Source: a virus
Reading direction: 5' to 3' (one strand)
Virus record (IMG/VR): IMGVR_UViG_3300037042_003348
Coordinates: 3,965-67,964 of that record
Length of the DNA stretch: 64,000 nt
The position numbers and the translations under genes were made by a program. The notes beneath the pieces are model-generated. The model did no database searches. It was given only the letters and a program-made list of their open reading frames with translations, and was not told where the DNA came from. The stretch's first letter is position 1; each line of letters begins with the position of its first letter. Of this stretch, positions 3,115 through 34,516 are shown piece by piece.

Positions 3115-3123
3115 GGTATTGCA

Positions 3124-9100: not shown

Positions 9101-12100
9101 AGAAGATTCAGCGGCGTACCATGCGTGCTTTTGGTAATCGTCGTCCGCCAAAGCCAGGGAATAAAACACGCCAGAAAAGCGTGGCTTCTTGGTTATTATC
9201 CGTAATCATGAACAAGTCTCCAAACTCGCACGAGCTGTCGCGGGTTGACACAGACGCATGGGGCACGTTTGAGGGTGCTGCCAGTCCTAACATCAGGTTC
9301 CCGCTCAATCTGGGTGCTGTTGGCGACACCGAGGAGGGTGGTGGAACCAAGCGATACGTGCCAACAAAAGATCATCGAGAGCAGTTCTTGTCTGTCTTGG
9401 GAAAATACCTCAAGCAGGAATCGCAAGCTGCGAGTCAGTTTATTCCGGCCGATCTCGGATCGCATGATACGTTCTCTATTCTTGTCCGGCGGTATGACAA
9501 GGTTGGTATCACCGAGTCCGAATTGGAGGAGATTAGTGACGGCCTTGGTCGCCCTATCAGCTATAAGCAAGTACCCAACGGATGGCAGCTGGACATCAAC
9601 ATAAGAGGATTTGATAAGACGGAGGGGCAAAAGGCGGAGAGTAGTGATGTGCAACGCATCCACGATGTAATGCAAAAATTCGCTTTGAAAGGGGCAGTTA
9701 GATACGATGTCCTTCCAAGATTGTACGAATCTAGCTACATTAAAAAGTCTGATTACAACAAACACATAAGGAACCTAGAGAATGAAATTCGGAAAAATTC
9801 TGACACCGGAGGAAGCGGAGAGGCTTTGGGGTATACCGAGGACGGGGGAGCTAGTGATTATGCCGCAGTTGTCGAGCAAATCAAAGGCATCGCAACAAAG
9901 CAAGAATCAGCCTTCAGGAAGTGGACAAAAGATGCAAGAGAGCGCGTCGCAAAGCGAAAAGTCCAATTTGGCGATCAACAAGGACCAGACTCAGGACAAA
10001 GATATTCCCCAGGACGACGATCCGAACCGGCCGGAGACGGAAGAGGACGCGATCAGAGCAGAAAGTATTCGCCGCTTGAAGGCGCACCATCAAGCCAAGG
10101 GGCGACAGGGCCAGACCCGAGGTTAGTTGATGTTGCTGAGAAGTACGCACGCGAAAACGGCATCGATCTCAAGCGACAAGCCGAATACGTTAAGGTAGAC
10201 GAGGATAGGGCTAAGCGGATCTCTAAAGCGTATGAGGATATGCCTCACGACCCGCAAGATCCAAAAGTTAAAGAAGCGTACCAAGAATTAGCCAAGCAAA
10301 CCAAAGCTCAATATGATGCTTTGGTGGCGGACGGATACACGTTCACGTTTTACGACAACGAATCTGATCCCTACGCTGGCAATCCAATGAATGCCATGCG
10401 TGACTTGCGACAAAACAAGTCAATGGCGGTTTATGGTACGTCTGCTGGCTTTGGTACTAAGGGCGTCACTAGTGGTTATGTTGACGACAACCCATTACTT
10501 GTAGACACAGGCGTGCGATGGAAAGACCAGAATGAAGTAGAACGCCCAGTTAATGCCGTTGAGCTCTTTCGTGCGGTTCATGATACGTTTGGGCATGGTT
10601 TAGAGGGATCTGGCTTCCGAGCTCGAGGCGAAGAAAATGCTTGGCAAGCTCACGTCCGGCTATTTACCGGCTCCGCTATAGGTGCTATGACCACTGGGAC
10701 TCGCGGACAAAACTCTTGGCTCAACTTTGGACCATACGGAGAAAAAAACAAGACTGCAAAGGTTGAAGATACAATCTTTGCGGATCAAAAGACTGGCTTG
10801 ATGCCCGAGTGGACCTGGACGGAAGGGCGTGCTGCAGATTATGATTCTAGTCGAGCATCTGTTGGAAGAAGAGACATTCCACAGCCACCTTCAATAATTG
10901 CAAAAGTTCTTTCTGAAAAATCCGATGCGGATGTGCTGAAGGAGTACACGCAAAAATGGAAGGGTGCACCAAACCGTGGTCCGTTTTTGCGTGTGATTCG
11001 TGGTCAAGTTCCAACGCAACAAGACAGCATTGCGGTGTGGGAGGATGATCGGGCCGCAAGGTTGTTGCTTGACGAGATCGACGGATCGCCAGAGATAAAC
11101 CGAGTACTTTACAGAGGTACAACAGCCACTGAGCTTGATCGATTTGTTGCTGACTCTGAGGTGCGTGAACTTCCAAGGGGGTTCTCTACCGATAAGAAAA
11201 TTGCAAGGAAGTTCAGCGACGGTGGTGTAATTGTTGTCGAACAGGGAGCTCGTGGAGTATCTGTTGGAGGGAAGTATGAAAGCGAAGTAATATCGCGGGG
11301 GCCGTTTGAGATCATTTCAGATAAAACGGAATCTGGGTCTCGTGTTTTGAGAGTCCGGCAACTAAACTATTCAGACACCACAAACAAGGAGATTGATGAT
11401 GGTACAACCAGACAAGAAACAGGAAGATCGCAAGACGACGGTAGCCGAGCAGCAGCCGGACGAAGCGGAAAAGAAGCAACCGCCGCCATCAGGAGTCGTA
11501 TTGGACCTAATGGAAGAGCTTGGAGTCGATCGCAAAACAGCCGAACGGTGGGCGGATATGGCGTAGTCGCCAGCTACAAGTCCGATTCTCCTGAGTGGAA
11601 CGAGGTTGGGGTTGCTACTCCTAATTTTGTAGAGCTGCAGAAGTCAGGGAAATCTGCAGCTCAGTTTGCCTCGGCCATCAATGCAGCGCGTGAAAGCCAA
11701 GGAAAACTTGGCGCGTCTGTCTACGTCTACCCTGAAGAAGACTATCGCGACATGCGACTGTTCCTAACCGAAGACGGTAAAGCTGGTTTTGCTTTGAAGG
11801 ACAGCGGCGAGGTTGGCGTATCTGACATTGTCTCGGTGTTTAACACAGCCAATAACGCACATCGTGGTGTCAGTTATTCGATGATACGTCTTGCTGTAGA
11901 AGAGGGCGGAAACACGCTTGACGCATTTGATACGTTTCTGCCTGTTCTTTATAGCGTAAATGGCTTTAAGGTAATTTCTCGTACTAAGTGGAACGGCGAG
12001 TTTGCTCCAGATGGCTGGAGCAAGGAAGAGTATTTAGATTTTAATAACGGTGAGCCGGATGTGGTCTTTATGGCTTACGATCCAAAGCGAACCGACATCT

Positions 12101-15100
12101 ATCGCCACGGCAGTGGCGAAGGTAAAGTTTTTGATGACTACGACGAAGCAGTCGAGTCGCAGCGATTGGCAGCTTTGAACTATTTAGAAACAGCAAACGA
12201 GGAGATTGATGATGGCGGTAAGAAACGAGACGGAAGAAGAGCAGCGGTCACCAGAGGAGATCTACGCGACGATTCAGAACAAGATCGACCAGGAATGGGG
12301 TCAAACTCTGGGTCAACCCCAAGCTACGGGCGAGCTAAAGAAGGAGCCGTCAGCTACGTCGGAAGGCACTACTCAAAGGAAGCTCGAGAGTCGCTAGATG
12401 TTAAGTTCCGTGGTACTGGAATCCCTGGTGCTGAAAATAGAAGGCTGCGTGGGACAGATGATGATCGCATAAAGAAACGCATCTACTTTTACATCGACAC
12501 TGCCGGAGAAATCAAGCCAGAGATGGGTGTTGGTAGCTTTGCTCACGAGGTTAAGCTAGACAATCTTTACGATCCAGATTCGAAACTCATCGAGTACCCT
12601 GGCGATCCTAATAAGTTTGAGTCAGCTATCGTTGACGCAGGTTACGACGGCTACATCTCGAAGTCCTTTGGTATGGCCGTTCTTCTCGGCCCCCAGCACA
12701 CTAACGTCCCTGTGCGTCGTGCGAAAGAATATGAAAAAGGTCAAGGCGATCGTTACTCCCCAGTTCGCCAAGCAAAGAGAAAGCGTGATCCCGAGGTCAC
12801 GAAAGCTGCGCAAGATCTGAAGGCTGGTCTAATCGATCGTGATCAGTATCAGAGGATCGTGGACATGAGAATGCCTCTCCGCAAGTTTGATGAGGTGCCG
12901 ATTCCAGCAAGCAAGGAAGATATGCTTCGCGGATTGGGCAAACGCAAAGCTGGTGAGCGACTCAAGAGAGATCTAATTCAAAATCCTGAAGACATCGCCA
13001 AAGGAACATTGCTTGAAGCCCGACTGGACATTCCTGCCTACGATGAAGAAAACGTCTGGATAGTCTCTTTGCATGAACCTCGCTCAGACCTGAATAAGGG
13101 AAGTGCCGGTCGAGTTGTCGCCTATACTCCGACATCTGTATTGAGAAATGTTACTTTCGGGGTCACCGAAACAGCCGCTCTGAATATCGCCGCTGGCAAG
13201 CCCAAGTCCACAATAGCTACCATGCGAGGCGAGTATGTGCCGATGACGGCAAAGCAAGCCTATGAGCTCGCAGAGACCAATAAGGATCAGTGGGTTGAGA
13301 TTGGGATGAATCCCGTACGCCACACTTACTTCTACGATAAAAATACGCAGGCTCCAGTGGAGTCGGCAGAAGAAGTAGTGCAAGTAGGCGGCATGGTGTT
13401 GGCTAAGAATCCTGTGCTGGGAAAACGAGAGAACTATCGTTACTCCCCTAGCCGTAAGGACGACTTGCTGGATTGGCTAATCCAGAACCTTGAAGAGCAG
13501 GGCGTAATCAAGCCAGAGAAGACGCCAGATCCGAAGCCTACTGGCACGAAGTACGCAAGGACTGAAGGACAGCGAACATTTGTTGGTGACTCGCCTAGAG
13601 AATCGTATGGCCCTCGTAAAGTCGAAGAGAGGCAACAGAAGGCGATCGCTGAGCTTGCTGCCAATCCAGGTCGTCCTTACGAGATCATCGCGCAGATGGA
13701 CGCGAAGCCAGCACCGTTGACGGACATGGAAGATGCGATCCTCAACGCTCGCATCAGGCAACTGAAGAATGATGGCGACATCCAGGGATCCGACAGGAAG
13801 GAATGGCTCGATCTTAATCGCACTGTTCAGCGAGGACATTCTGAATGGGGCTACGCAGGCCATGCAGCACAGGCTGAACTGGCGGATGACTTCTCGGTTG
13901 AAGGATTGACACGCAGACACACGGATCACGTTGGAGAAGATCCTAAGTCTGAAAAACTGGCAACGTATGCAGATCTTGCTGATCGCATCGACAAGATGGA
14001 AACGGAGAAGGCTGACCTTATTGAGAAGCTTGCGCAAGAAGCGATTGCTCGTCAGAAGGCCGAAGAGAACCAGAAGCCACCTCCTAAGGAGAAAATTGGG
14101 ACGAAGCGAGCTACCTTGATGAAAAAGGTTGCTGATGGCTTTGCTGCATTCCAGAACGCCTGGAGTGGTGGTACGACTGGCCGACCTGCAGTTGCTCGTC
14201 AAGCTGAGTCGTCTGCTTTCAAGAAGTGGTTTGGCAACAGTAAGGTAGTCGACGACAACGGCGATCCGTTGGTTATGTACCACGGAACAGACAAAGACTT
14301 CAATGTGTTTGAAAACCGTGGCGGTAAGGTCTCGGTCTTGTTCTCCACGTTTGATGTTGATCGCAAGGGGTTTTTCTTCGCTAAGGATAAGGGTCTTTCC
14401 CTTGAGTACGGCAGCAAGCTTGTGCCAGTCTATTTGTCGATTCAGAAGCCAGCTAACTTCCTTGACAGTAAGGAATGGCCAAAGATCAAGGAAGGTCTTG
14501 TTGAGAGAGGGTGGAATGAAAGATATCTCGATCGAACTGATGCTTGGGAGCTGTTTGATGTAGATGAGTCGAACGATGGTGCTAAGCTCATTAAAGACCT
14601 AAAGTCGATGGGTTACGATGGAGCAATCATCGAAGAGCCATCATGGCAAGATGAGAACGGCGAATATGGTGTGTCTCACGTTGCGTTTGATAACACCCAG
14701 ATTAAGTCCGCCACTGGTAACGTCGGCACATTCGACGCAACAAACCCAGACATCCGCTACTCCCCAAGTCGGCAAGAACCTGATATTAAGGCTGCGGCTG
14801 CTAGCATCGTTGCAACATTGCGTGAGATGGGCGTGAGTTCCGAGTTGGAGCTCGAGTCTCAGGTTAATGCGAACATGCCAAATGTTACACCCGAGCAGAT
14901 GCAGGTGATTAAGGAAGCATGGGACGAAAGCGTCAAGAAGACCAAGCTTGAGTCTCCTTTGGGTGACAATCCAGATCAGGCAGAAATTGGTGCTCGAGCA
15001 AAGGAGCTGATGAAGCTTGCGATCGAGGCTGGTCATGGAGCCACACCAGGTACATGGCAAGAAGTCGTTGATGTTGTGCATGCACAGTTGTCAATCGAAG

Positions 15101-25857: not shown

Positions 25858-26415
25858 ATGAACAAGTATGAATTGATAAGCCCAAAAACTAATCAGCCAT
25901 GCGGTGTCTTTGTGTGCGGAGAATGCAATATTGTTCGTCCAAAGGACTTGGTTGACCAATGTTGTTTGCCTTGCGATTGTGGAAAACCATCACGTAATCG
26001 ATTCGAAGCGAAGTGCTCAGATTGCGCACACGTTGAATACGCACAGCGGCGAGCGAAGCAGCTAGAAGAGGCTGAGTTGGTTGAGTGGGACGGAGAGTCT
26101 ATGATTTTCAGCGAAGAAGTCAGTGGACATCGCGATGGTTGGTTTGATTCACCAGACGATCTTGCTGACTACATGGCAGGCGAAGGAGATGATGACTGCC
26201 CAGAGTTTGCGTTCCTTGGTCGCAAGTCAGTTAAAGAACTTGATTTGTATCGATCGATTGAACAGATGACTGAAGATACATACGAGGATGCTGAGCTACA
26301 CGTACCTCTTGAAGATATGTCGCCTCTTATAGCAGCAGTGGGTTTTTTCAACGCAAAATATGCGGTGACGTACTACGAGCATGACTACAAACGGAAAGTT
26401 CGTGTTAGACCATGA
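25858..26415 (+). CDS. Hypothetical Cys-rich protein
   Basis: Multiple CxxC motifs; operon position. Confidence 0.6.
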   Translation: MNKYELISPKTNQPCGVFVCGECNIVRPKDLVDQCCLPCDCGKPSRNRFEAKCSDCAHVEYAQRRAKQLEEAELVEWDGESMIFSEEVSGHRDGWFDSPDDLADYMAGEGDDDCPEFAFLGRKSVKELDLYRSIEQMTEDTYEDAELHVPLEDMSPLIAAVGFFNAKYAVTYYEHDYKRKVRVRP

Positions 26416-26753
26416 CAAAAAACGTGTTTTGGTCGACTCTGGCTACTCTCGATGATCTCGGTCACGGGAGTAGCTTAGAGGTGCTTATAATTTACACCGT
26501 CAATCCAGCAGAGCCAATGGTGCGATACGATCGCGACGGATCTGGCTATCCAGGTTGTGATGCATCAGCTGAGTTGTGCAGCGTCAGCGTCATCAGGTGG
26601 GACGTTGGTGATGAGGAACGAAAGCCAGATGATCATTGGATCTGGTTATCACTCACTGAGATTGCTACTAAGGCAGTGGCAGAACAGTGGAGATCTAGAT
26701 TCGAAGATTTGTGCCTCGAGGAGATTAGTGATTACTTGGAGGGGGAATTCTGA
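26412..26753 (+). CDS. Hypothetical protein
   Basis: ATGA overlap with upstream gene. Confidence 0.6.
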   Translation: MTKNVFWSTLATLDDLGHGSSLEVLIIYTVNPAEPMVRYDRDGSGYPGCDASAELCSVSVIRWDVGDEERKPDDHWIWLSLTEIATKAVAEQWRSRFEDLCLEEISDYLEGEF

Positions 26754-27622
26754 TGGCTGGCGAATGGAGGCGAGTGTCGAGAAAGGAACCGTGTCCAGTC
26801 TGTGGTAAGCCCGATTATTGCACTCGAAAGGCTAATGGAGAGGTTGTGCTATGCATGCGAGTCGAGTCGGACAAGCCTGCTAAAGAAGGACAGGGAGTAG
26901 GTGGGTGGATACACTTGCTTAAAAACCCTCTGCCTCCTTTGCCGCTGGCTAAACCAGTCGAGAAGAAGGCTGATTGGACTAAAGAATGCCGAGCTATGTT
27001 TAATCATCCAGAGGCACATTCAAAGCGATGTGCAGTGGCTGACTTATTGTCGGTTAGTGTGGATTCGCTAGAGATGTTGCGAGTTGGGATCGGGTGGGAT
27101 GAATGGAATGGTGCCGAGTTCTCGAGTTGGCCTAGCAGGGACAACAACGGAATGGTTATTGGCTACGTTCGAAGATACGATGATGGTTCGAAGCGGACGA
27201 ATCTTGGAGGGTCCACAGGAGTGTTCTACACTGCCGAATGGTTCTCGAGACCTGGACCGCTCTGGATCGTCGAAGGAGGGTCTGATGTGGCTGCATGTGA
27301 GTCATCTGGCCTGTCGGCGATCGGACGCGCTAGCAACACACATGGAGGCCAGTACATCGAGAAAATGATTAAGCAGTGCTGCCCAAACAAGAAGGTTATT
27401 GTGGTGGGTGAGCGAGACGAAGCACCTGATCGCCGAGGTGTTGTCCCGAGCTGCACTACAAGCTGTCGTGGCTGTGCTTTTTGCTGGCCAGGACTGTATG
27501 GCGCGAAGAAGGTGGCGGCTGAGATGCAAGCGTCATGGGTGCTTGTGCCGAGGCCATACAAGGACATGAGAGAGCTATTAGCCGCAGGTGGTCTGTGGCT
27601 TGACTTGATGGAATTATTTTAA
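26753..27622 (+). CDS. DNA primase (Zn-binding + TOPRIM)
   Basis: CPVCGKPDYC..C zinc domain; TOPRIM 'WIVEGGSD', 'GERD', 'YKDMRE'. Confidence 0.8.
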   Translation: MAGEWRRVSRKEPCPVCGKPDYCTRKANGEVVLCMRVESDKPAKEGQGVGGWIHLLKNPLPPLPLAKPVEKKADWTKECRAMFNHPEAHSKRCAVADLLSVSVDSLEMLRVGIGWDEWNGAEFSSWPSRDNNGMVIGYVRRYDDGSKRTNLGGSTGVFYTAEWFSRPGPLWIVEGGSDVAACESSGLSAIGRASNTHGGQYIEKMIKQCCPNKKVIVVGERDEAPDRRGVVPSCTTSCRGCAFCWPGLYGAKKVAAEMQASWVLVPRPYKDMRELLAAGGLWLDLMELF

Positions 27623-27636
27623 GTGGAGATTAGTTA

Positions 27637-28083
27637 ATGAAGAGCAATGACATAGCGTTGGGAGATATGACGTTGAGGGATCATTTTGCAGCTGAGGCAA
27701 TGAGCGGTTGGCTGGCAACATTCGGTCCTGACAATACGCATCCTGCAACTAACCATCATCATCCAGATGCGAGCTTTAATATCGCTGAAGCCAGTTACAT
27801 CATAGCTGATGCTATGCTTGCAGCAAGGAAGCCAAGGATCAAAGATACCCACGTCGATTCCGAGCCTGACCCTTTTTCCTTGGTGCTATTCGTTGGTGGA
27901 ACGCTCGAGGGAATGCAACCCATGAAGACGTTGCCACGGTACATTGATCATGAAAGCGAACAGTATCACCGGTATGATATCGAGATCGATGGCGTTCTGG
28001 TTAAGGTCTTTTACGTTTGGTCTGGGTTGACCAAAGAGGCTGCGTCCCAGTCAGTAGATATTGTTTTTGGAAAGAAGCAATGA
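27637..28083 (+). CDS. Hypothetical phage protein
   Basis: Common phage motif 'MTLRDHFAAEAM..SYIIADAMLAAR'. Confidence 0.65.
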   Translation: MKSNDIALGDMTLRDHFAAEAMSGWLATFGPDNTHPATNHHHPDASFNIAEASYIIADAMLAARKPRIKDTHVDSEPDPFSLVLFVGGTLEGMQPMKTLPRYIDHESEQYHRYDIEIDGVLVKVFYVWSGLTKEAASQSVDIVFGKKQ

Positions 28084-28454
28084 AGCGAAAGCTAGTACCG
28101 AGGACCAGGGCAGGTGGGACCATGACAGAGGCTCAATTTTGGGCCTTCTTACGGTCCAACCTGCGATTGGCGTCCAGGAAGTGGGCACCGCGTAAACAGG
28201 TGGAGATTGCAGCCAGGAGGCCAAGCCAGAGCGATAACAAGAAGTTGAAGTGGGAATACCAGTGCTCAGGATGCGGCGGCTGGTTCCCCCACAAAGAAAC
28301 AGCAGTCGACCATATCGTCCCTGCTGGCACATTGCTTTCGTTTGCGGACGTAGCAGGATTCGTCGAGAGATTATTTTGTGAACCAAACGGTCTGGTGGTG
28401 CTATGCGAGCGGTGCCATCATACCAAAACTTATAGCTCGAAAGAGGAAGAATAG
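28080..28454 (+). CDS. HNH endonuclease
   Basis: 'YQCSGC..VDHIVP..LCERCHHTKT'. Confidence 0.8.
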   Translation: MKRKLVPRTRAGGTMTEAQFWAFLRSNLRLASRKWAPRKQVEIAARRPSQSDNKKLKWEYQCSGCGGWFPHKETAVDHIVPAGTLLSFADVAGFVERLFCEPNGLVVLCERCHHTKTYSSKEEE

Positions 28455-28455
28455 C

Positions 28456-28710
28456 ATGGCGTACGAACAACGAGACAACAGCGGATCTCTCTTCAAGAAC
28501 GATCGCAAAGAAGAAGGGTCCAATCATGCCGATTGGAATGGAACAGTGCTGATCGGTGGTCGTGAATATTGGATCAATGCATGGACGAAGCAGGGCAAGA
28601 GCGGATCCGAGTTCTATAGCCTGTCTTTCAAGCCTAAGCAAGGTGGTGGTGGAGGTGGTGGAGGTGCTCCGAGACAACAGCCCTCGAACAGCGATCAGGC
28701 TCCTTTCTAA
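28456..28710 (+). CDS. Short single-stranded DNA-binding protein
   Basis: 'GSLFKNDRK..DWNG..YWINAW..FYSLS'; Gly linker; DQAPF tail. Confidence 0.7.
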   Translation: MAYEQRDNSGSLFKNDRKEEGSNHADWNGTVLIGGREYWINAWTKQGKSGSEFYSLSFKPKQGGGGGGGGAPRQQPSNSDQAPF

Positions 28711-28719
28711 GGCGTCCCA

Positions 28720-28926
28720 ATGAAACCAGCAGACAAGCTATTAAAAGTCGAAGAGGTCGCCAGCAAGATGCGCGTCAACCGCCGCACCGTGCAGACCTGG
28801 ATCGATAGTGGAAATCTGGCCGCGACTGATGTGCGGCCGGATGGGGCTCAACGTGCCATGTGGCGAATTGAGTCAAGCGATCTCGTGCAATTCGCTAAGA
28901 GACGCAAGAAAGAACGCCAGAGCTAA
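28720..28926 (+). CDS. Excisionase-like helix-turn-helix protein
   Basis: 'LLKVEEVASKMRVNRRTVQTWIDSGNLAA..WRI'. Confidence 0.8.
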   Translation: MKPADKLLKVEEVASKMRVNRRTVQTWIDSGNLAATDVRPDGAQRAMWRIESSDLVQFAKRRKKERQS

Positions 28927-28965
28927 CTTCAGCTTTGGTAAAACGACTTTACGAAAGACAAGATC

Positions 28966-29265
28966 ATGATCCCAAGACTTATCTCGATGTTCGCATTGGC
29001 TGTGTTGGCCTCGAATACATTCGCGCAAGATCCTCTTGCAAGCAGCACCTCCTACACGATCGGCAATATCACATACGCAACCTACGAGACTCCTAGAGGG
29101 CGGGTGACTGCAAGTTATCAGAAGATCGGTAACTTTGAGTACGGAACCTACAGCAATGGAGCCACCTCAACTACTCATCAGATTGGAAGGTTCCGTTACA
29201 CGGACTATCGTGAGCCATCTCGCTGGACACCAAGTCAGTACGTTCCGACTTATCGTCGACGGTAA
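28966..29265 (+). CDS. Secreted hypothetical protein with beta-hairpin repeats
   Basis: Signal peptide; three IG(N/R)xxY repeats. Confidence 0.6.
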   Translation: MIPRLISMFALAVLASNTFAQDPLASSTSYTIGNITYATYETPRGRVTASYQKIGNFEYGTYSNGATSTTHQIGRFRYTDYREPSRWTPSQYVPTYRRR

Positions 29266-29348
29266 TGCAATGATTATCCAGTCGCGGCAGCAACGCATCC
29301 ACTGCCTAGCGACTGTTTACGCGACTTGGATGCAATCAATTGTTCACC
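29260..29348 (-). mobile_element. attC-like site 1 (partly degenerate)
   Basis: Minus strand: GGTGAAC-AATTG-ATTGCATC..stem..GGATAAT-CATTGC-ATTACCG (R''-5-L''...L'-6-R' geometry; GTT replaced by ATT). Confidence 0.55.
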
Positions 29349-29468
29349 GTCGATGAAGTACCGATTGATTCTGATTACTACCGAGACACCTCCAGACGGA
29401 ACAGTCGGCATTGTATTCACGGAAGACTTTTTACGACCAAAGCGATATTACTGGTTAGTGGAGAAAAC

Positions 29469-29804
29469 ATGATTTCAGCATTAGTAGGGCATCTCGTTGG
29501 CGATTACCTCGCCCAAAGCGATTGGATGGCGTTGAACAAAAAGAAGTCAACGCTGCATTGTGCGGTTCATTGTGCAATCTGGACGGCGTGCGTTGTCCTC
29601 TTCGCGTGGTGGCCATTGTGGACAGCGATACCGTTGTTCGTGACGCATTTTATTCAGGACAGAACGCAGATCATCAATTGGTGGATGGACCTTGTTGGCC
29701 AGAAGCAATTCCGCACCGGCATTTGTGCCCCGTGGTCGATGATCGTAGTGGACAACGTGTGGCACATCGTAACGATTTGGGCCGTGTGGCTTATCGTCCG
29801 GTGA
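29469..29804 (+). CDS. DUF3307-like membrane protein (cassette 1)
   Basis: 'HLVGDYLAQSDWMALNK..H..THFIQD..VDNVWH'. Confidence 0.75.
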   Translation: MISALVGHLVGDYLAQSDWMALNKKKSTLHCAVHCAIWTACVVLFAWWPLWTAIPLFVTHFIQDRTQIINWWMDLVGQKQFRTGICAPWSMIVVDNVWHIVTIWAVWLIVR

Positions 29805-29889
29805 ACGCTTTGATTGATTTAGCTGCCGATGCAAAGCCGCCATCGGGTAAACGGTTGTTCGGCGGCTTAAATCCAATCAATTGTTATGG
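29800..29889 (-). mobile_element. attC-like site 2
   Basis: Minus strand: CCATAAC-AATTG-ATTGGATT-TAAGCCGCCGA...TCGGCAGCTA-AATCAAT-CAAAGC-GTTCACC; two extrahelical bases. Confidence 0.7.
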
Positions 29890-29895
29890 TGTATC

Positions 29896-30255
29896 ATGAC
29901 AGACATTGAAGCGGTTTTGAAGACACAGGTAAGCGACACGTTCCTAGCTGGAATGGTCGCAAGAATGGAGATGTCGTATTTCAAGTACGGCGACGTGAGG
30001 GAAGCGTACCCGGAAAAGATTGACGCATTAGCGAGCCTGCAACAGCGATTAAGGAAGTACGAGGACACAGGAAACACCGAGTTCCTAATGGACGTTGCCA
30101 ATTTCGCAATGATTGAGTTCATGTTCCCTCGCAAGGAAGGTGCGTTTTTCCAAGCCACGGATAGCGACCAATCCCCTGGCAGGACAACGACACTAGGAAT
30201 CGAAACGGATCGCCCAAACATCGTCCGGCACCACTACAGCCACGATGGCGACTAA
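29896..30255 (+). CDS. Hypothetical phage protein, possibly all-alpha NTP-pyrophosphatase-like (cassette 2)
   Basis: 'SYFKYGD..YEDTGNTEFLMDVANFAMIEF'. Confidence 0.6.
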   Translation: MTDIEAVLKTQVSDTFLAGMVARMEMSYFKYGDVREAYPEKIDALASLQQRLRKYEDTGNTEFLMDVANFAMIEFMFPRKEGAFFQATDSDQSPGRTTTLGIETDRPNIVRHHYSHDGD

Positions 30256-30257
30256 AT

Positions 30258-30327
30258 CACCATAACAATGAATTAACCGTGTCGGCGCAAATAACACGTT
30301 ACTTGCGCGTTTGGTTGGTTGTTAAAT
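30258..30327. mobile_element. Degenerate attC-like site 3 / hairpin between convergent genes
   Basis: CACCATAAC is the perfect complement of GTTATGGTG at 29883; internal hairpin GCGCAAATAAC/GTTACTTGCGC; ends in GTTAAAT; L boxes do not pair. Confidence 0.4.
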
Positions 30328-30328
30328 G

Positions 30329-30796
30329 TCACGACTGGATAGAGTTGGCTTCTTCTTGGATCGAGTACCGAAACGCGAATGCATCTTCGTTGCAGTCTTT
30401 GTAGAAATTCGGCAAAATGTTCATTGCACGAAACCCAAGCGATCGTAGAAACAACTGTGCGTCCAGATTGGTCTCTCGCACTCCCAAGGTGATTCGGTTT
30501 CGACGTTGGAAAGCCAACTTGGAAACCAATTTCTCAATCATGGCTTTTCCAACTCCTGATCTTCGGAAGTCGGGATGAACTGCGAACGCAAGAATATGGA
30601 TTCTGTTCTTGTGTAGTTCGTAGATCATGAAGCCAGCAACCACCTCATTTCGCTCGGCCACCATGCCAATGCAGGTTCTTTGGCGTAACGCACGAATGAA
30701 CTCTTCTTCGGTCCAAGGATCTGGTGAGCCGTCTCTTTCAATCGCCAGCACATCTGGCATGTCTCGCCTGATTAGCCATCGTACGTGCATACTCAT
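30329..30796 (-). CDS. rimI: RimI-like GNAT N-acetyltransferase
   Basis: 'VRWLIRRDMPDVLAIE..WTEEEF..AVHPDFRRSGVG..VRETNLDAQLF..GF..FY..EDA'. Confidence 0.85.
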   Translation of the reverse strand: MSMHVRWLIRRDMPDVLAIERDGSPDPWTEEEFIRALRQRTCIGMVAERNEVVAGFMIYELHKNRIHILAFAVHPDFRRSGVGKAMIEKLVSKLAFQRRNRITLGVRETNLDAQLFLRSLGFRAMNILPNFYKDCNEDAFAFRYSIQEEANSIQS

Positions 30797-30972
30797 TCTG
30801 CCTGCTCCTTTTGCTTATCAACCTTGGCCTGGACTTCGCTGCGATTCACCGACACGTCTTTCGGCGCGACGATCCCTAATCTTACCTTATCGCCACGAAT
30901 TTGCACGACAGTTATCGTGATCCCACCTTCGATGACGATCTGCTCGTTGGTCTTGCGACTTAGTATTAACAT
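30793..30972 (-). CDS. csrA: Carbon storage regulator CsrA (59 aa; absent from ORF track)
   Basis: Hand translation: MLILSRKTNEQIVIEGGITITVVQIRGDKVRLGIVAPKDVSVNRSEVQAKVDKQKEQAE; ATGA overlap with rimI. Confidence 0.92.
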   Translation of the reverse strand: MLILSRKTNEQIVIEGGITITVVQIRGDKVRLGIVAPKDVSVNRSEVQAKVDKQKEQAE

Positions 30973-30984
30973 TCCATGTTCCCT

Positions 30985-31149
30985 TTACTTTCGATCTTCG
31001 AACTCAATGCTCACCGCAGGCTGACCATCAACCCTGGTTACTGTAATCTTCGTTCTGTGGCTTGCACACCCACAGAACACACAAACCACCACCAACAAAA
31101 TCCATTTCGACACTGCTCGGTTGTAGTCTTCAGTCCTGTCCTCAAACAT
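30985..31149 (-). CDS. Small putative lipoprotein (54 aa; absent from ORF track)
   Basis: MFEDRTEDYNRAVSKWILLVVVCVFCGCASHRTKITV..; hydrophobic stretch then lipobox-like FCGC; AAGGA RBS. Confidence 0.6.
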   Translation of the reverse strand: MFEDRTEDYNRAVSKWILLVVVCVFCGCASHRTKITVTRVDGQPAVSIEFEDRK

Positions 31150-31242
31150 CCTTTTTCTCCTTGAATGAATAGTTTACCGCAATAGCGCGGGCAGTTGGAG
31201 CCTGGGCGAGGCTCCTCGTGTTCGTGCTAGTCAGTAAAGGTC

Positions 31243-31527
31243 TTACACTCGGAAAAGGTGTGACAGTGCGAGATCCAACGCATTACGCTCTCTGACGAGG
31301 GTCTGTTCCGTTTGATCGATGTAGCCGCGTTGTCGCTCAGTGAAAGCAGCAACGGCCTCCTCGATGGTTGCGTAGTAGCTTCTCGAGTCAGCTGAGAAAA
31401 CATGACCATGGTCGTTACGAATGATCATGTCGCATCCTTCCACTGGAGTAATACCAACGTGCTCGTGTGGCTCAAGCTTGGTGTACTGCGAGAGGTTGCC
31501 GTTAATCGTTATGAAGTAAACTTTCAT
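31243..31527 (-). CDS. Hypothetical early protein
   Basis: ATGA coupling within the minus-strand operon. Confidence 0.6.
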   Translation of the reverse strand: MKVYFITINGNLSQYTKLEPHEHVGITPVEGCDMIIRNDHGHVFSADSRSYYATIEEAVAAFTERQRGYIDQTEQTLVRERNALDLALSHLFRV

Positions 31528-31898
31528 TCGTCTTGTGTCCTTTTGGATTGTTGTTCCATTTTCTTGTTAACTCTGTCAACGAGAGTTATTTTCTCATTTA
31601 TCACTTCGACTTTTGCCATCTTGAAATCTGCTAGCCACGATGGACCGAAGTTGTTTCGAATTGATATCGACTCTTGCGGACCTTCGGCGTTGAACCATTG
31701 GTCACTAAGCTTCTTCTTCCAGCTCTTCCCGTTCTCTCGAGCGAACTTCAGTATGAATGCACGTTGTTCAGGGGTAAGGCATGGACGATCATCAAGCATC
31801 CATTTGCCGCACCATGCACACTTATTCTGCGCAGGTTGTCGACCAACCAGAGCGATATGCCCTGGTTTAGTTCTCATTAGTCGTTTACTTGGTTGCAT
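31524..31898 (-). CDS. Hypothetical early protein
   Basis: AAGGA RBS before MQPSKRL; 'FARENGKSWKKKL..W..IRNNFGPSWL' phage motif. Confidence 0.55.
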   Translation of the reverse strand: MQPSKRLMRTKPGHIALVGRQPAQNKCAWCGKWMLDDRPCLTPEQRAFILKFARENGKSWKKKLSDQWFNAEGPQESISIRNNFGPSWLADFKMAKVEVINEKITLVDRVNKKMEQQSKRTQDE

Positions 31899-32247
31899 TT
31901 GTTTCTTCCTTAAGGCAATCTTGAGCATGCAAGAAGCAGTTACCGAACTCCACCATCGCAGCCCCGAGCGATCCGTGGAACGTGTGCTGCAGGCCGTAGT
32001 GAACGCGGTAAGTTGTTTTGCACAATCTCCTGCGTCTCTTTCTGGTAACCTGAAATACAACTTCAAAATCCCCTACACTTCCACTGACAAGCTTTGCCGT
32101 CCACAAAGCTGGAACGCAGTACAAAGCAGCCCTGTCTCTTGCTGTGTCGATCGCAAGATTCGCCAACTGTTGTAAGGCTTCGTCCTCGCTGAATACGTCG
32201 CCTGGAACTTTGACTTTGTAGCAGTCGATAACATATTCACTGGCCAT
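31885..32247 (-). CDS. Hypothetical early protein
   Basis: AAGGGG before MASEYV; overlaps flanking genes. Confidence 0.55.
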   Translation of the reverse strand: MASEYVIDCYKVKVPGDVFSEDEALQQLANLAIDTARDRAALYCVPALWTAKLVSGSVGDFEVVFQVTRKRRRRLCKTTYRVHYGLQHTFHGSLGAAMVEFGNCFLHAQDCLKEETNATK

Positions 32248-33061
32248 GAATAACCCCTTCCACTTCGTAAAGATCGAAACTTCCATAAGGCTTGCAAGCA
32301 TCCGAAAGCTTGTCGCCAATGTCCTCAAGCCCGCGATCCCAGAAACCTGCGCCATGCCCGTTACGTGTTAGCCAAAAGTCATGACCGCATTGTCCAGGAT
32401 CCAGGCCATTAAGCAGCTTCGCGTTGGCTTTGATGAAGTCCTTGCAGTCTGCACGCATTGTCTCGAGCACCATCGGATCAATTTCGTCCTTATCGAACAG
32501 GCCCAACGGCTCACCATTGTCATCAGTCGACGACCACAGAGCACACTCAACGTAGGCTGTGAAGAACTTATCGAAGTCCAATGGCTCAATAGCCTTGCGG
32601 ACTTTGCGAACCTTTCCGGCCTTCGTTAGCGTGGCTTGGTATTCCATAGCCAACACAAGTCGCTCGGCCAGTACCGACTCGCTCGCTAGCTTCTTGACTG
32701 TACAACCGATAAAGTTGCTTGAATGCAGCAGGCCGGTGGTAGTGTTGACTGTCAGCACGATGACCGGAAGCTCGTACGGCACACCGTTTGAACTTCCGCG
32801 TTGCACGCTTTCCTTGACTTCCAGAACCTTCGTCTTCGAGTAACCAGTAAGCTTAACCCAGTCACCCGCAGCGATCGTCTCCACAGGAACCTCGAACATA
32901 GCCGAGTAATACCGATGAGCCTCAGTTCCGCGTTTGGTGAACGCCCGTCCACGGCCGCCGCACTTAAAGCATTTTGTGCCGTGCATTGTGCAGTACGAAT
33001 ACTGACCCGATCCGCCGCAACGACCACATGTCTCCACCTCAAAACCGTTTGCGTCGTACAT
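32237..33061 (-). CDS. Early protein: N-terminal CxxCxGxG Zn finger fused to a conserved phage domain
   Basis: CGRCGGSG..CFKCGGRG; 'AYVECALWSS..GHDFWLTRNGHGAGFWDRG'; ACAGGAG RBS. Confidence 0.65.
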   Translation of the reverse strand: MYDANGFEVETCGRCGGSGQYSYCTMHGTKCFKCGGRGRAFTKRGTEAHRYYSAMFEVPVETIAAGDWVKLTGYSKTKVLEVKESVQRGSSNGVPYELPVIVLTVNTTTGLLHSSNFIGCTVKKLASESVLAERLVLAMEYQATLTKAGKVRKVRKAIEPLDFDKFFTAYVECALWSSTDDNGEPLGLFDKDEIDPMVLETMRADCKDFIKANAKLLNGLDPGQCGHDFWLTRNGHGAGFWDRGLEDIGDKLSDACKPYGSFDLYEVEGVIHGQ

Positions 33062-33084
33062 CTCTCAATCTCCTGTGTTGTGTG

Positions 33085-33468
33085 TTAGTTGTAATTGCCG
33101 CGTTCGACGATATCACCCCAACAACCGATTCGGAACCGGCCTCGAACGTACATGATCGTCAGTTCGTAACTGTCGCCTGTGTTTAGGTAATCGATCGATG
33201 GTGATCGTTTATTGCTGCCCCTGTAAATGTGCTCAACACCGAATGTTCCAAGGTCAGGGAACCATTGCTCGACGACCAACAACGTGTCGCGAACCAGGAA
33301 GCTGGTATGGCATCGCTTGTATTCATCTAATGAAGCCAGCTTAAAAAACGCTACGCGACACGCACGACGAGCTCGAGTCAAATACGCTGAACGTGTCTCG
33401 CCCGTCTTCTGGAGCCGTTTGCGACCACTGGAAGCCAAGTCGATTGCAGATTGGAAGTTCGTAAGCAT
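33085..33468 (-). CDS. Hypothetical early protein
   Basis: 'TFGVE..YLNTGDSYELTI..FRIGCWGDIVE' phage motif; ACAGGAG RBS. Confidence 0.65.
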   Translation of the reverse strand: MLTNFQSAIDLASSGRKRLQKTGETRSAYLTRARRACRVAFFKLASLDEYKRCHTSFLVRDTLLVVEQWFPDLGTFGVEHIYRGSNKRSPSIDYLNTGDSYELTIMYVRGRFRIGCWGDIVERGNYN

Positions 33469-33498
33469 TGAAAAGTCTCCTGTGATTGTTTCTGAACC

Positions 33499-33546
33499 TG
33501 GGGACGCAGCCCGCAGGCTGCCGCACTTGGCCTAACCCCACCAAGC
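33499..33546 (-). ncRNA. Pseudoknot RNA motif, copy A
   Basis: GCUUGG-UGGGG-UUAGG-CCAAGU-GCGG-CAGCC(UGCG)GGCUG-CGU-CCCCA. Confidence 0.75.
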
Positions 33547-33547
33547 C

Positions 33548-34516
33548 TCAATACTTTGGATGTTCTCTCCATTCCAGCTTTACGCCTTCAGGCAGGTTTG
33601 CTGTCCTGAACGTCTTGAACACTTCGACCATGTGATCGAACTCTTCCTTGGTTACAAGCTTGCAAGTACTGCTCCAGTTCACGGCCAGTTCGTTGGAGTG
33701 TTCGTAGTAAATGCAATTCACTTTGGTTCCAAAATTATCGAGAACAAACAGCTCAACCTCCAGCTTCTTCTCAGCTTTTCGAACAGTCTTGTCGTGAGCA
33801 GTCAGTAGCTCAGCACGTTTCTTCGCTTTCATAGCTGCAGCCTTTTCGGCATCTCGGGCTGCAATCGCTTCAGCTGAGTAGTACCCTGATGCGCGACGTT
33901 CTGCGACCAGCTCACGAGTTGCGATCGTAACAGGTAACCAATGTCCACGAGTTGCTTCCGACTCAAACTCCTTGCCCGTCCATAGCTCGAGCTGTTTGAT
34001 AGCTGCATCAGCCTCGTTCTTCCATCGATCGACAATACCAAGATCCTCAAAAGCAATACTAAGCTCATCGGCCGATCGGCACTCAAGCAACGCAGGAAGC
34101 TCGTCTCCTGTGCATCGAACGTGATCGCGAAAGATCCGCAAGCAATCTTCCTTGCTCTTGGCATCGCTTCCGTTGCTGCCATGGTGTTCCACGTAGCTCA
34201 GCCCGAGGTGACCGGCAAGCCAATAGAACGCATTGGATGCGCAGTGCATTGGGACGCCTTGCCATGTGCTCAGGTGCAGGTCCACGAACGGCTTCAGCTC
34301 TGGGCGAAGCGACAGGATGAGCTCGTGACAGCAACCCCCTCCAGCGTCGACCATTACACCTCGAGCGTTTCGTTCTCTGATGTTAGCAGTGATGGAGAAG
34401 TCCTCGTGCCCGTTCTTGCATTCGTCATCCAGACGGATACGAATGTCGACAATCCGATTGCTATTGCCTTCAACGATCGAGTGACGGAGCGTGTTTGTTT
34501 TGGTCGCGGTTTTCAT
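33548..34516 (-). CDS. Hypothetical early protein
   Basis: ACAGGAG RBS before MKTATK; 'IRLDDECKNGHEDFSITA..GGCCHE..LHLS..GVPMH..NAFY' phage motif. Confidence 0.7.
   Translation of the reverse strand: MKTATKTNTLRHSIVEGNSNRIVDIRIRLDDECKNGHEDFSITANIRERNARGVMVDAGGGCCHELILSLRPELKPFVDLHLSTWQGVPMHCASNAFYWLAGHLGLSYVEHHGSNGSDAKSKEDCLRIFRDHVRCTGDELPALLECRSADELSIAFEDLGIVDRWKNEADAAIKQLELWTGKEFESEATRGHWLPVTIATRELVAERRASGYYSAEAIAARDAEKAAAMKAKKRAELLTAHDKTVRKAEKKLEVELFVLDNFGTKVNCIYYEHSNELAVNWSSTCKLVTKEEFDHMVEVFKTFRTANLPEGVKLEWREHPKY

Follow-up and report, generated by a model that had tools for sequence, protein, structure and literature searches.

Two attC sites of a Planctomycetota integron family probably organise genes of a phage as cassettes of reversed polarity

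The subject of this study is a window of 64,000 nt, taken from a 67,964-bp virus record of IMG/VR whose first 3,964 bases lie outside it, and in particular two hairpins of that window, here called site 1 and site 2. Both are true members of a family of attC sites that is present in the integron arrays of Planctomycetota and in dozens of viral contigs. We consider it likely that the two sites organise the genes beside them, a DUF3307 gene and o119, as integron cassettes in a variable spot between convergent operons, and the genes lie antisense to the usual polarity of an attC site. With no integrase in the phage, this arrangement counts as a CALIN (cluster of attC sites lacking integrase): two model-supported attC sites stand 540 bp apart and the record contains no integron integrase (IntI). 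The intI gene and attI site that adjoin the array of a complete integron are absent from the window, and its open reading frames (ORFs) lie on the bottom-strand side, not on the top strand with an attC behind them as in a canonical cassette. Between the genes o99 and GNAT the order is site 1, the DUF3307 gene, site 2, o119 and a weak hairpin called site 3, with the following features:

29256..29352, + strand: site 1, attC-family hairpin in bottom-strand orientation, 5' arm damaged
29266..29805, + strand: predicted cassette Y, hairpin first (site 1, GTTCACCG core, 124-nt leader, DUF3307 ORF, end ...CGGTGAA)
29469-29804, + strand: DUF3307 ORF, the middle gene (PF11750 31.1 bits, cutoff 23; phrog_2470 'membrane protein')
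29796..29893, + strand: site 2, intact attC in bottom-strand orientation
29806..30265, + strand: predicted cassette X, hairpin first (site 2, GTTATGGTG core, o119, end CACCATAA)
29896-30255, + strand: o119, 119-aa ORF
30258..30327, no strand assigned: site 3, weak hairpin of the form AAC...GTT, lying after o119 and before the stop of GNAT, a convergent gene
30264..30266, + strand: AAC junction at the array's right end, where natural populations are polymorphic for an insertion

The boundaries of the predicted cassettes follow from the rule that the bottom strand is cleaved between AA and C of 5'-AAC-3' (PMC5027507). The cores of cassette X are complementary over 9 nt, and the first base of cassette Y is T where C is expected.

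The original prediction, made from the sequence alone, had described two palindromes and a remnant, with each gene bracketed by its own complementary pair of cores and with stop codons in or beside the cores. The cores are indeed found there: GTTCACCG at 29342-29349 has its partner CGGTGAAC at 29799-29806, and GTTATGGTG at 29883-29891 has CACCATAAC at 30258-30266, the pairs being complementary at 8/8 and 9/9 positions when the triplets are counted. The stops TAA (29263-29265), TGA (29802-29804) and TAA (30253-30255) lie in or beside them. The two palindromes also stood. Folded as single-stranded DNA, site 1 reached -26.4 kcal/mol (z -5.1), which none of 200 shuffles equalled, and site 2 reached -18.8 kcal/mol (z -2.95), with 1/200 shuffles as good; both were found by the two covariance models described below. 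The remnant did not stand as an attC: neither that identity nor membership in the family is supported for site 3, which is most likely backbone (a terminator-like stem in the 30295-30309 region) or a decayed inverted attC. The earlier parse of site 2 as an attC on the minus strand agrees with the structure derived from the models. In this structure the R' triplet AAC (29804-29806) overlaps the TGA stop of the DUF3307 gene and the R'' triplet GTT lies at 29883-29885, and between them are three stems (29811-29815/29875-29879, 29816-29821/29868-29873 and 29822-29829/29859-29866). Two bases, C29874 and T29867, bulge from the 3' arm on either side of the second, 6-bp stem, and cleavage is predicted between A29805 and C29806. 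Site 1 has its GTT at 29342-29344, a bulged C29333, beside which G29332 is also unpaired, and a bulged T29326. Sites 1 and 2 are homologous across ~105 nt and the differences in their stems are compensatory. The 11-mer AATCAATTGTT that they share is not significant by itself (2 matches against 1.58 expected); the two-arm pattern is, with 3 overlapping matches at the 2 sites and 0 in 100 shuffles.

A very specific version of the two-arm pattern matched no viral contig, and it was a looser version that opened the family. The looser pattern matched 30 viral contigs, where ~1 chance match was expected and nearly all matches were 80-83 nt long, and it gave 21 genome matches, including four Planctomycetota metagenome-assembled genomes (MAGs). 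Among the 21, only L144, L145, L152 and L156 are family members. The cyanobacterial matches L139, L148 and L155 have in common a stretch of 80 nt that resembles a conserved coding region, not a hairpin element; the remaining ones, and the viral match L125, were judged by eye to be chance. We aligned 26 distinct elements with the two window sites. The resulting 28 rows have invariant ends and 21 consensus pairs, and compensatory changes were found in 11 of these pairs with almost no broken ones: the hairpin structure is under selection. In all 28 members the 3' arm has the same layout, an invariant bulged C and a conserved bulged T placed 6 bp apart, and a phage-type subfamily has invariant arms on both sides.

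From the 28 rows, window sites 1 and 2 among them, we built a covariance model (R1), and from 32 chromosomal array sites of a single MAG, G001, a second one (R2). Because the training sites of R2 were picked with R1, the test with R2 is independent in sequence, not in selection. R1 found only sites 1 and 2 in the window, with 64.7 bits (E 2e-14) for site 1 and 79.5 bits (E 3e-18) for site 2, and it gave the reverse strand of site 2 only 15.1 bits. R2, run over the 64 kb on both strands with filters off, also found both sites on the + strand (site 1, 49.1 bits, E 8e-11; site 2, 61.5 bits, E 3e-14). R1 and R2, which are models of our own, stand in here for the IntegronFinder model named with the original prediction. 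The next-best R2 match, 28905-28999 (E 0.84), lacks complementary cores and was treated as chance. A search of the whole window with Rfam 15 gave no match at gathering scores.

The same elements build arrays beside integron integrases in bacterial genomes. R1 gave at least 96, 30, 15 and 2 matches in the four Planctomycetota MAGs, counts that are lower bounds since 150 candidates were scored per genome; the matches form tandem arrays on one strand with a spacing of 300-1,400 bp, and all four MAGs that hold the element contain integron integrases above the TIGR02249 cutoff. In G003:C198, an intI gene on the - strand (1726-2775) is followed by the first cassette ORF, of 251 aa, on the + strand (2951-3706) and an attC (3706-3805) whose bottom strand is on the - strand, and the array begins 5' of intI. 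The arrangement is that of a textbook integron, in which the orientation found by the model is that of the bottom strand. Family arrays lie on the same strand beside IntI, with the bottom strand co-directional with intI, in G003:C198 and G002:C37 and likewise in G007, L225, L226, L229 and L285, a property of the family and not of the window itself.

The orientation of the sites relative to the genes is what sets the phage copies apart. The bottom strand of an attC carries 5'-AAC-3' in R' and has its extrahelical bases on the arm that lies opposite this triplet, the first of them usually G and the last the conserved T, and a 6-bp stem separating these two is required (PMC5027507). The + strand of the window, which is its coding strand, has the bottom-strand layout given there, except that the first extrahelical base is C. 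Where intI stands relative to the arrays is in line with this choice of strand. Since the bottom strand is the coding strand, the phage cassettes are inverted relative to the cassettes of host chromosomes. To see how far this extends, we called the gene orientation between successive elements by a longest-ORF rule (at least a 1.3-fold length difference, no gene finder being used). The 52 intervals of the MAG arrays comprised 38 with the gene opposite to the bottom strand, 5 with the gene on the same strand and 9 ambiguous ones; the 55 intervals of the viral contigs comprised 3, 34 and 18, respectively. Three of the five 'same' intervals of the MAGs are located in L202, and the opposite-strand ORFs of the MAGs typically occupy ~95% of their interval. 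With the ambiguous intervals and L202 excluded, the same-strand to opposite-strand counts are 34/3 for the viral contigs versus 2/38 for the MAGs (Fisher p 5e-16). Genes antisense to attC polarity, which had been claimed for the window, are a general property of the phage-borne copies.

Some phages of this kind carry the integrase as well. Arrays of 6-11 family model matches were found in five viral records, one of which, G007, has a tyrosine recombinase. G007 is clearly a phage, since it encodes terminase, portal (344 bits), head-protease (474 bits) and tape measure proteins; its 44-kb genome is rated complete by CheckV and carries a full integron (L220/L221, G007:C1:15686-21731). The IntI of G007 is full-length (310 bits vs a cutoff of 265), and an array of 7 sites lies on the 5' side of intI with its bottom strand and its cassette ORFs co-directional with intI, the cassette genes being transcribed towards intI. 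The terminase of the window had no relative in the five array-rich viral records, which therefore represent other phage lineages. A profile of seven IntIs detected 278 relatives in IMG/VR viral contigs, of which 80 were kept (loci L224-L303). Among the loci kept, 5/79 carry the attC family of the window, always upstream of intI and on its strand; with so few, other IntI loci may hold other attC families. At these five loci, 6 of 8 intervals had their ORFs on the same strand and none had them on the opposite one. The IntIs of L225, L226, L229 and L285 scored 283-378 bits, and all four that were tested passed the IntI cutoff. L285 is also the contig of L110, which holds a near-twin of site 1. 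By sequence identity, the integrases of G007, L225, L226 and the truncated copy of L202 form one group (44-66%) and that of L285 belongs to a second, suggesting at least two integrase lineages among these phages.

A further property ties the window to integron arrays. The premise is that the two flanks of one hairpin in an integron array come from different cassettes, and that the two ends of one cassette are complementary. We scored the 8 nt beyond the GTT and AAC triplets that flank a gene. Gene-flanking pairs were complementary at 5.18/8 positions in phage-type arrays (n=57) and at 5.32/8 in chromosomal arrays (n=47), compared with 2.7/8 for random pairs and 2.5/8 for the two flanks of the same hairpin, and the observed means were reached in 0/5000 permutations. 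The two core pairs of the window are instances of this family-wide rule of complementary ends. In a check by hand of L132 and L134 the complementarity of the cores had seemed to fail; the systematic count shows that the rule holds overall.

Shared modules locate the breakpoints. The DUF3307 module of the window (~29338-29807) is ~85% identical to that of L202, part of a 58.6-kb contig (G002:C249) of the Planctomycetia MAG G002, in which four family elements accompany genes on the same strand: DUF5131, a phage family, then DUF3307, a 111-aa ORF and a truncated integron integrase (164.8 bits, with only residues 143-315 matched). The homology extends from ATTGTTCACCG to GGTGAACG and breaks at the GTT (ATTGTT) and the AAC (AACG) of the neighbouring hairpins, and these hairpins have an identity of 0.64 upstream and 0.54 downstream, the background being 0.62 +/- 0.065, a likeness no greater than that of family members paired at random. 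An element in L110 has an interior 95% identical to that of site 1 (within the top 0.1% of 2346 pairs), and both genes beside it are different. Other contig pairs, L134/L124, L113/L118 and L119/L128, have breaks at AAC. Genes and hairpins assort independently, with junctions at the two triplets. Three further observations were made at these loci. The open frame of the L202 integrase (5251-6174) passes through the last attC (5251-5346), and from this sequence the intI looks as if it had been interrupted by a cassette insertion. L134 (7938-8158) and L124 (2154-2373) have in common an attC and a leader of ~190 nt through the ATG, and diverge completely right after the start codon. The 124-nt leader ahead of the DUF3307 ATG (window 29340-29468) can be read in frame with the gene starting at a TTG within the GTT core, and because the same in-frame extension, with similar residues, is found in L202, the DUF3307 protein may start earlier than annotated.

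A natural insertion polymorphism was found at the right end of the array. The window stretch is present in public runs of several studies, and we compared the assembled contigs of four of them: X2, which is DNA of another study, X3 and X4, which are metatranscriptome libraries of a third study, and X5; none is the probable source of the window. X2 matches 28671-29990 with 0 differences and is therefore the same phage. Its record 4 (930 nt) joins 30244-30266 to 30261-30366 via ~800 other letters; contigs of X3 and X4 run to 30266 and continue there with the 5' arm of a family hairpin, and record 19 of X4 enters the window at 30261 from other sequence ending in ...TCGT. An extra unit of ~800 nt is inserted exactly at ...CACCATAAC, hairpin first and with CATAAC repeated at its far end, and this is the outcome expected of a bottom-strand crossover between AA and C on the + strand. 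Parts of the window that had no contig cover in X3, X4 and X5 were not counted as evidence. In an X5 contig, 29175-30692 are replaced by 652 unseen letters with breaks inside o99 and GNAT (85% likeness threshold), which says only that a relative of 98-99% identity differs in the region. One contig from an RNA library spans site 2 (29741-30266).

Several wider claims of the original prediction can be viewed against these results. Four parts of it (attC sites of integron type, genes antisense to their polarity, no integrase, and a phage pool of reversed cassettes with cassette-precise indels) each came through a test that might have gone the other way. Its remark that no integrase is in view extends to the whole record, and the phage-specific pool of reverse-polarity cassettes that it proposed finds its counterpart in the arrays of 6-11 such cassettes in five viral records. 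Cassette-precise differences, which it had asked to be looked for among relatives, occur twice, in the breaks of the DUF3307 module at GTT and AAC (L202) and in the extra unit at AAC 30264-30266 (X2-X4). An IntI may well act in trans, as it proposed, with related phages as a possible source beside the host.

A number of observations weigh against the reading of these genes as cassettes moved by an integrase. In site 1, the triplet is AAT (29264-29266) where AAC is expected and one base of the 5' arm is lost, and the site may be dead as a recombination site. Site 3 folds at -9.8 kcal/mol (z -0.12), which 93/200 shuffles matched, and neither R1 nor R2 matched it on the + strand at E up to 10, the R1 match on the - strand being one of 8.8 bits (E 6.6). 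Because site 3 is not a detectable attC, cassette X is without a proven second excision site in the form that the window has. Searches of the whole 67,964-bp record with TIGR02249 and PF00589 gave no match, and no tyrosine recombinase was found. The first extrahelical base is an invariant C in the phage and chromosomal copies alike, not the usual G; because the published description (PMC5027507) says 'usually', we regard this as a departure, not an exclusion. On the model strand the terminal loops are only slightly enriched in purines (0.54 and 0.57), a weak skew, and the polarity counts depend on ORF length as the caller of orientation. In the shared-module comparison the hairpin interiors are tied to neither neighbouring gene. 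Breaks at GTT, found in L117/L129 and L119/L128, depart from a pure bottom-strand model, which predicts breaks at AAC only, and suggest additional events, either on the top strand or of homologous exchange at the conserved arms. A hybrid hairpin, L118:7678-7776 (-), has a junction that falls within the stem: the 5' arm belongs to one attC type, the loop and 3' arm belong to a second that L113 also has, and the arms are unpaired, so that the sequence suggests recombination inside hairpins. As for the polymorphism, the window lacks the extra unit and no X2-X4 contig shows the window's own junction, and the comparison rests on assembled contigs, not raw reads, with the interior of the extra unit unseen. 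Finally, the closest homologs of the two genes in other viruses (L011, 77%; L028, 85%) are without such hairpins, and among 79 loci with relatives of DUF3307, o119 or HTH the models matched only in L216 and at none of the DUF3307 or o119 loci.

These points can be set against other explanations of the hairpins. The simplest, that the palindromes are ordinary terminators or chance inverted repeats unrelated to integrons, is already refuted for sites 1 and 2 and has almost no probability left in our view. It could draw on the plain GC-rich hairpin that is found where the same operons meet in relatives L006 and L010, and on site 3, which folds no better than its shuffles, but it would have to accommodate model E-values of 1e-11 to 1e-18, a family of hundreds of members in arrays beside IntI and the covariation that supports the structure. 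A terminator scan of 26000-34000, which listed 5 sites with 6.9 expected, called none at sites 1-3, and no T-run of the kind that, behind a short GC-rich stem, marks an intrinsic terminator stands behind any of the three. The same scan result bears on a second explanation, in which the hairpins are derived from attC sites that no longer recombine here and are kept as RNA or transcription elements (processing sites, stabilisers or weak intergenic terminators), the array being a frozen relic. The losses in the triplet and 5' arm of site 1, the degeneracy of site 3 and the lack of an integrase in the record are what a relic would look like, every element is placed between genes of one orientation, near stop and start codons, and attC sites are thought to contain weak terminators (PMC9892861). 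However, site 2 retains all the features of recombination, both bulges and the 6-bp spacing, which a terminator does not need, and a unit has been gained or lost exactly at AAC 30264-30266 between otherwise identical samples; the RNA-library contig that crosses site 2 is a weak hint in the same direction, as DNA carry-over is possible. Taken together, we find a relic unlikely.

Slightly less credible to us, and thus quite improbable, is an explanation in which the shuffling is mainly homologous or template-switch recombination at the conserved 12-nt arms (AACGCTTTGATT, CAATCAATTGTT), integrases having no role in the phages, much like the shuffling at the stem-loop repeats of T4-type phages. 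It would make sense of the phage-type arms that are invariant on both sides, of hairpin interiors that assort independently of both neighbouring genes, of breakpoints on both sides of the hairpins and of the hybrid of L118 with its junction inside the hairpin. Yet it leaves unexplained the complementarity across genes, which lies outside the conserved arms (5.18/8 vs 2.7) and is the footprint of a circular intermediate closed at AAC/GTT, as well as the conservation of the bulges and the fact that five viral contigs have IntI beside arrays of this kind, placed canonically with respect to attC polarity. It also fits poorly with the extra unit of X2-X4, which is bounded by AAC on both sides and whose downstream partner, site 3, is without the conserved arms.

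We return to integrase-driven cassettes as the reading that we prefer. For the window phage, that an IntI cuts there, which IntI this is and when the DNA is single-stranded are matters that we infer. The + strand, whenever it became single-stranded, would fold into a hairpin at each site, and an integron integrase acting in trans, supplied by a chromosomal integron of the host or by the integron of a co-resident phage, would bind this bottom-strand form. Related phages are a further possible source of the IntI, since in at least five viral contigs the attC family of the window is accompanied by an IntI of their own. The enzyme would cut between A29805 and C29806 and exchange one strand with another folded attC, and replication would resolve the junction. 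The mobile unit would be one with the hairpin first, C-hairpin-GTT...gene...AA. IntI has been reported to insert cassettes at non-classical genomic sites, attG (bioRxiv 10.1101/2022.09.11.507474), and by analogy cassettes could enter the phage backbone at a bare AAC/GTT, for example at the stop of o99 or at the 30264-30266 junction. More broadly, Planctomycete phages may run a parallel integron economy, with their own integrase lineages, their own pool of hairpin-first cassettes whose genes are on the recombinogenic bottom strand, and client phages without IntI, the present one among them, that draw on it; this larger picture we hold tentatively, with slightly more doubt than trust.

Because the polarities are opposite, a cassette that crossed between the host and phage pools would land antisense to local transcription. 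If the larger picture is true, such a cassette would be inserted silent, a polarity barrier by which the two sides would share a recombination machine without cross-expression, for example of host defence cassettes. The position of the bottom strand on the non-template strand could tie the mobility of cassettes to transcription during infection. We consider both possibilities for the polarity, that it has a function and that it is inherited history. Integrons are known mainly as gene-collecting devices of bacteria, and it is owing to the asymmetry of attC that cassettes enter in one orientation, in which they can be expressed. In a set of phage genomes, some with an integron integrase of their own and some without, this asymmetric site is employed in the reverse sense throughout. 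If true, phages of at least one phylum would exchange accessory genes as integron cassettes, two cassette pools of opposite polarity would exist with one family of sites, and the direction of gene flow between host integrons and phages would be readable from polarity alone. The pair of sites and the natural insertion polymorphism would be usable for testing the choice of strand by non-model integrases.

The surroundings of the array are those of a phage. The record has linear ends, is rated complete by CheckV and encodes a helicase, a primase-like protein, an SSB, an HNH protein and a weak match to a large terminase; a single ORF of 4,988 aa (window 3124-18090, + strand) spans 15 kb of the genome. 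A rightward operon with the order primase, HNH, SSB-like, HTH_17 and o99 converges on a leftward operon of GNAT and CsrA, and the genes that adjoin the array are the following:

28966..29265, + strand: o99, 99-aa ORF with a signal-peptide-like start, the backbone gene directly left of the cassettes
30329-30796, - strand: GNAT acetyltransferase (PF00583 61.6 bits), convergent backbone gene right of the array
30793-30972, - strand: CsrA (PF02599 77.5 bits), convergent backbone gene right of the array

The stop of o99 (TAA 29263-29265) falls within the left core of site 1. Neither o99 nor o119 has a Pfam or PHROG family; the nearest Atlas clusters of o119 are viral hypothetical proteins, and homologs of o99 (33-51%) come after the HTH gene in relatives L004, L005, L006 and L216. 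The CsrA homolog directly followed by GNAT was noted as a phage gene pair that is kept in relatives. A second variable spot lies nearby, at 31113-31245, where 133 nt are replaced by 712 other letters in contigs of X2 and X5 and where contigs of X3 and X4 have loose ends at 31112 and 31246. This spot is located between two small leftward ORFs and adjoins an inverted repeat (31183-31229), and it has no attC model match (R1, R2).

Ten IMG/VR relatives, with primases 66-78% identical to that of the window phage, are all without DUF3307 and o119, and their DNA is too diverged for boundaries to be mapped; a metagenome scan with the HTH protein gave nothing closer than 76%. The interval from HTH to GNAT is hypervariable in the relatives, from 93 bp to ~4 kb. 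In the more distant relative L216, two family elements lie directly after its o99 homolog, and the same spot has therefore been used again. The two genes themselves are common phage genes, with 17 viral relatives of DUF3307 and 84 of o119 (80 kept). The relatives thus show a hot spot, not the origin of the cassettes.

In sedentary chromosomal integrons, such as the superintegron of Vibrio cholerae with its VCR sites, related attC sites form long arrays on one strand, and IntI lies at one end. The Planctomycetota arrays (G001:C73, C57 and C51; G003:C198) fit this kind fully. The window shares with it the conserved ends, the covarying stems and the complementarity of the cassette ends across each gene, and differs from it in that its cassettes belong to a phage, there are just two of them, neither IntI nor attI is close, and the bottom strand is the one that carries the genes. 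Integrons of the Treponema type have an inverted integrase gene, with intI upstream of the cassettes. As in that type, intI and cassette genes of the phage integrons point the same way; unlike in that type, the arrays of G007 and L226 are on the 5' side of intI with canonical attC polarity, and it is the cassette ORFs that are flipped and transcribed towards intI.

Closest to the window are the integrons and 17 CALINs reported in phages, including virulent ones (Qi et al. 2023, PMC9892861), where IntI1 recombined 5/6 of the phage attCs tested and the bottom strand did so better than the top. As in those CALINs, at least two attC sites flank small genes without an IntI, and a bacterial IntI acting in trans was proposed there too. 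Those CALINs belong to isolated phages of other hosts, and their cassettes are described as sharing one direction, the arrangement 'most typical of bacterial arrays', with some divergent sites. No systematic gene inversion is mentioned in the abstract and section 3.4 of that report, whereas 34 of the 37 callable viral intervals are inverted in our set. Also unlike those CALINs, the window has an attC family that also occurs in chromosomal integrons of the phylum presumed to contain the host. A cluster of attC sites without an integrase in a phage is thus already known, and the reversed polarity seems to be new. In the literature searched, supplements excepted, we found no report of systematic gene inversion relative to attC polarity in phage arrays, of phage integrons with cassettes transcribed towards intI, or of an attC family common to the chromosomal integrons of Planctomycetes and to their phages. 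A gene antisense to the usual polarity is also seen in the inverted toxin-antitoxin cassettes of chromosomal integrons, which have promoters of their own (PMC13108822). As described there, those inverted cassettes make up a minority and serve a special role in stabilisation; in the phage-borne pool inversion is the rule, and the inverted genes are ordinary phage genes, among them DUF3307, DUF5131 and viral hypothetical proteins.

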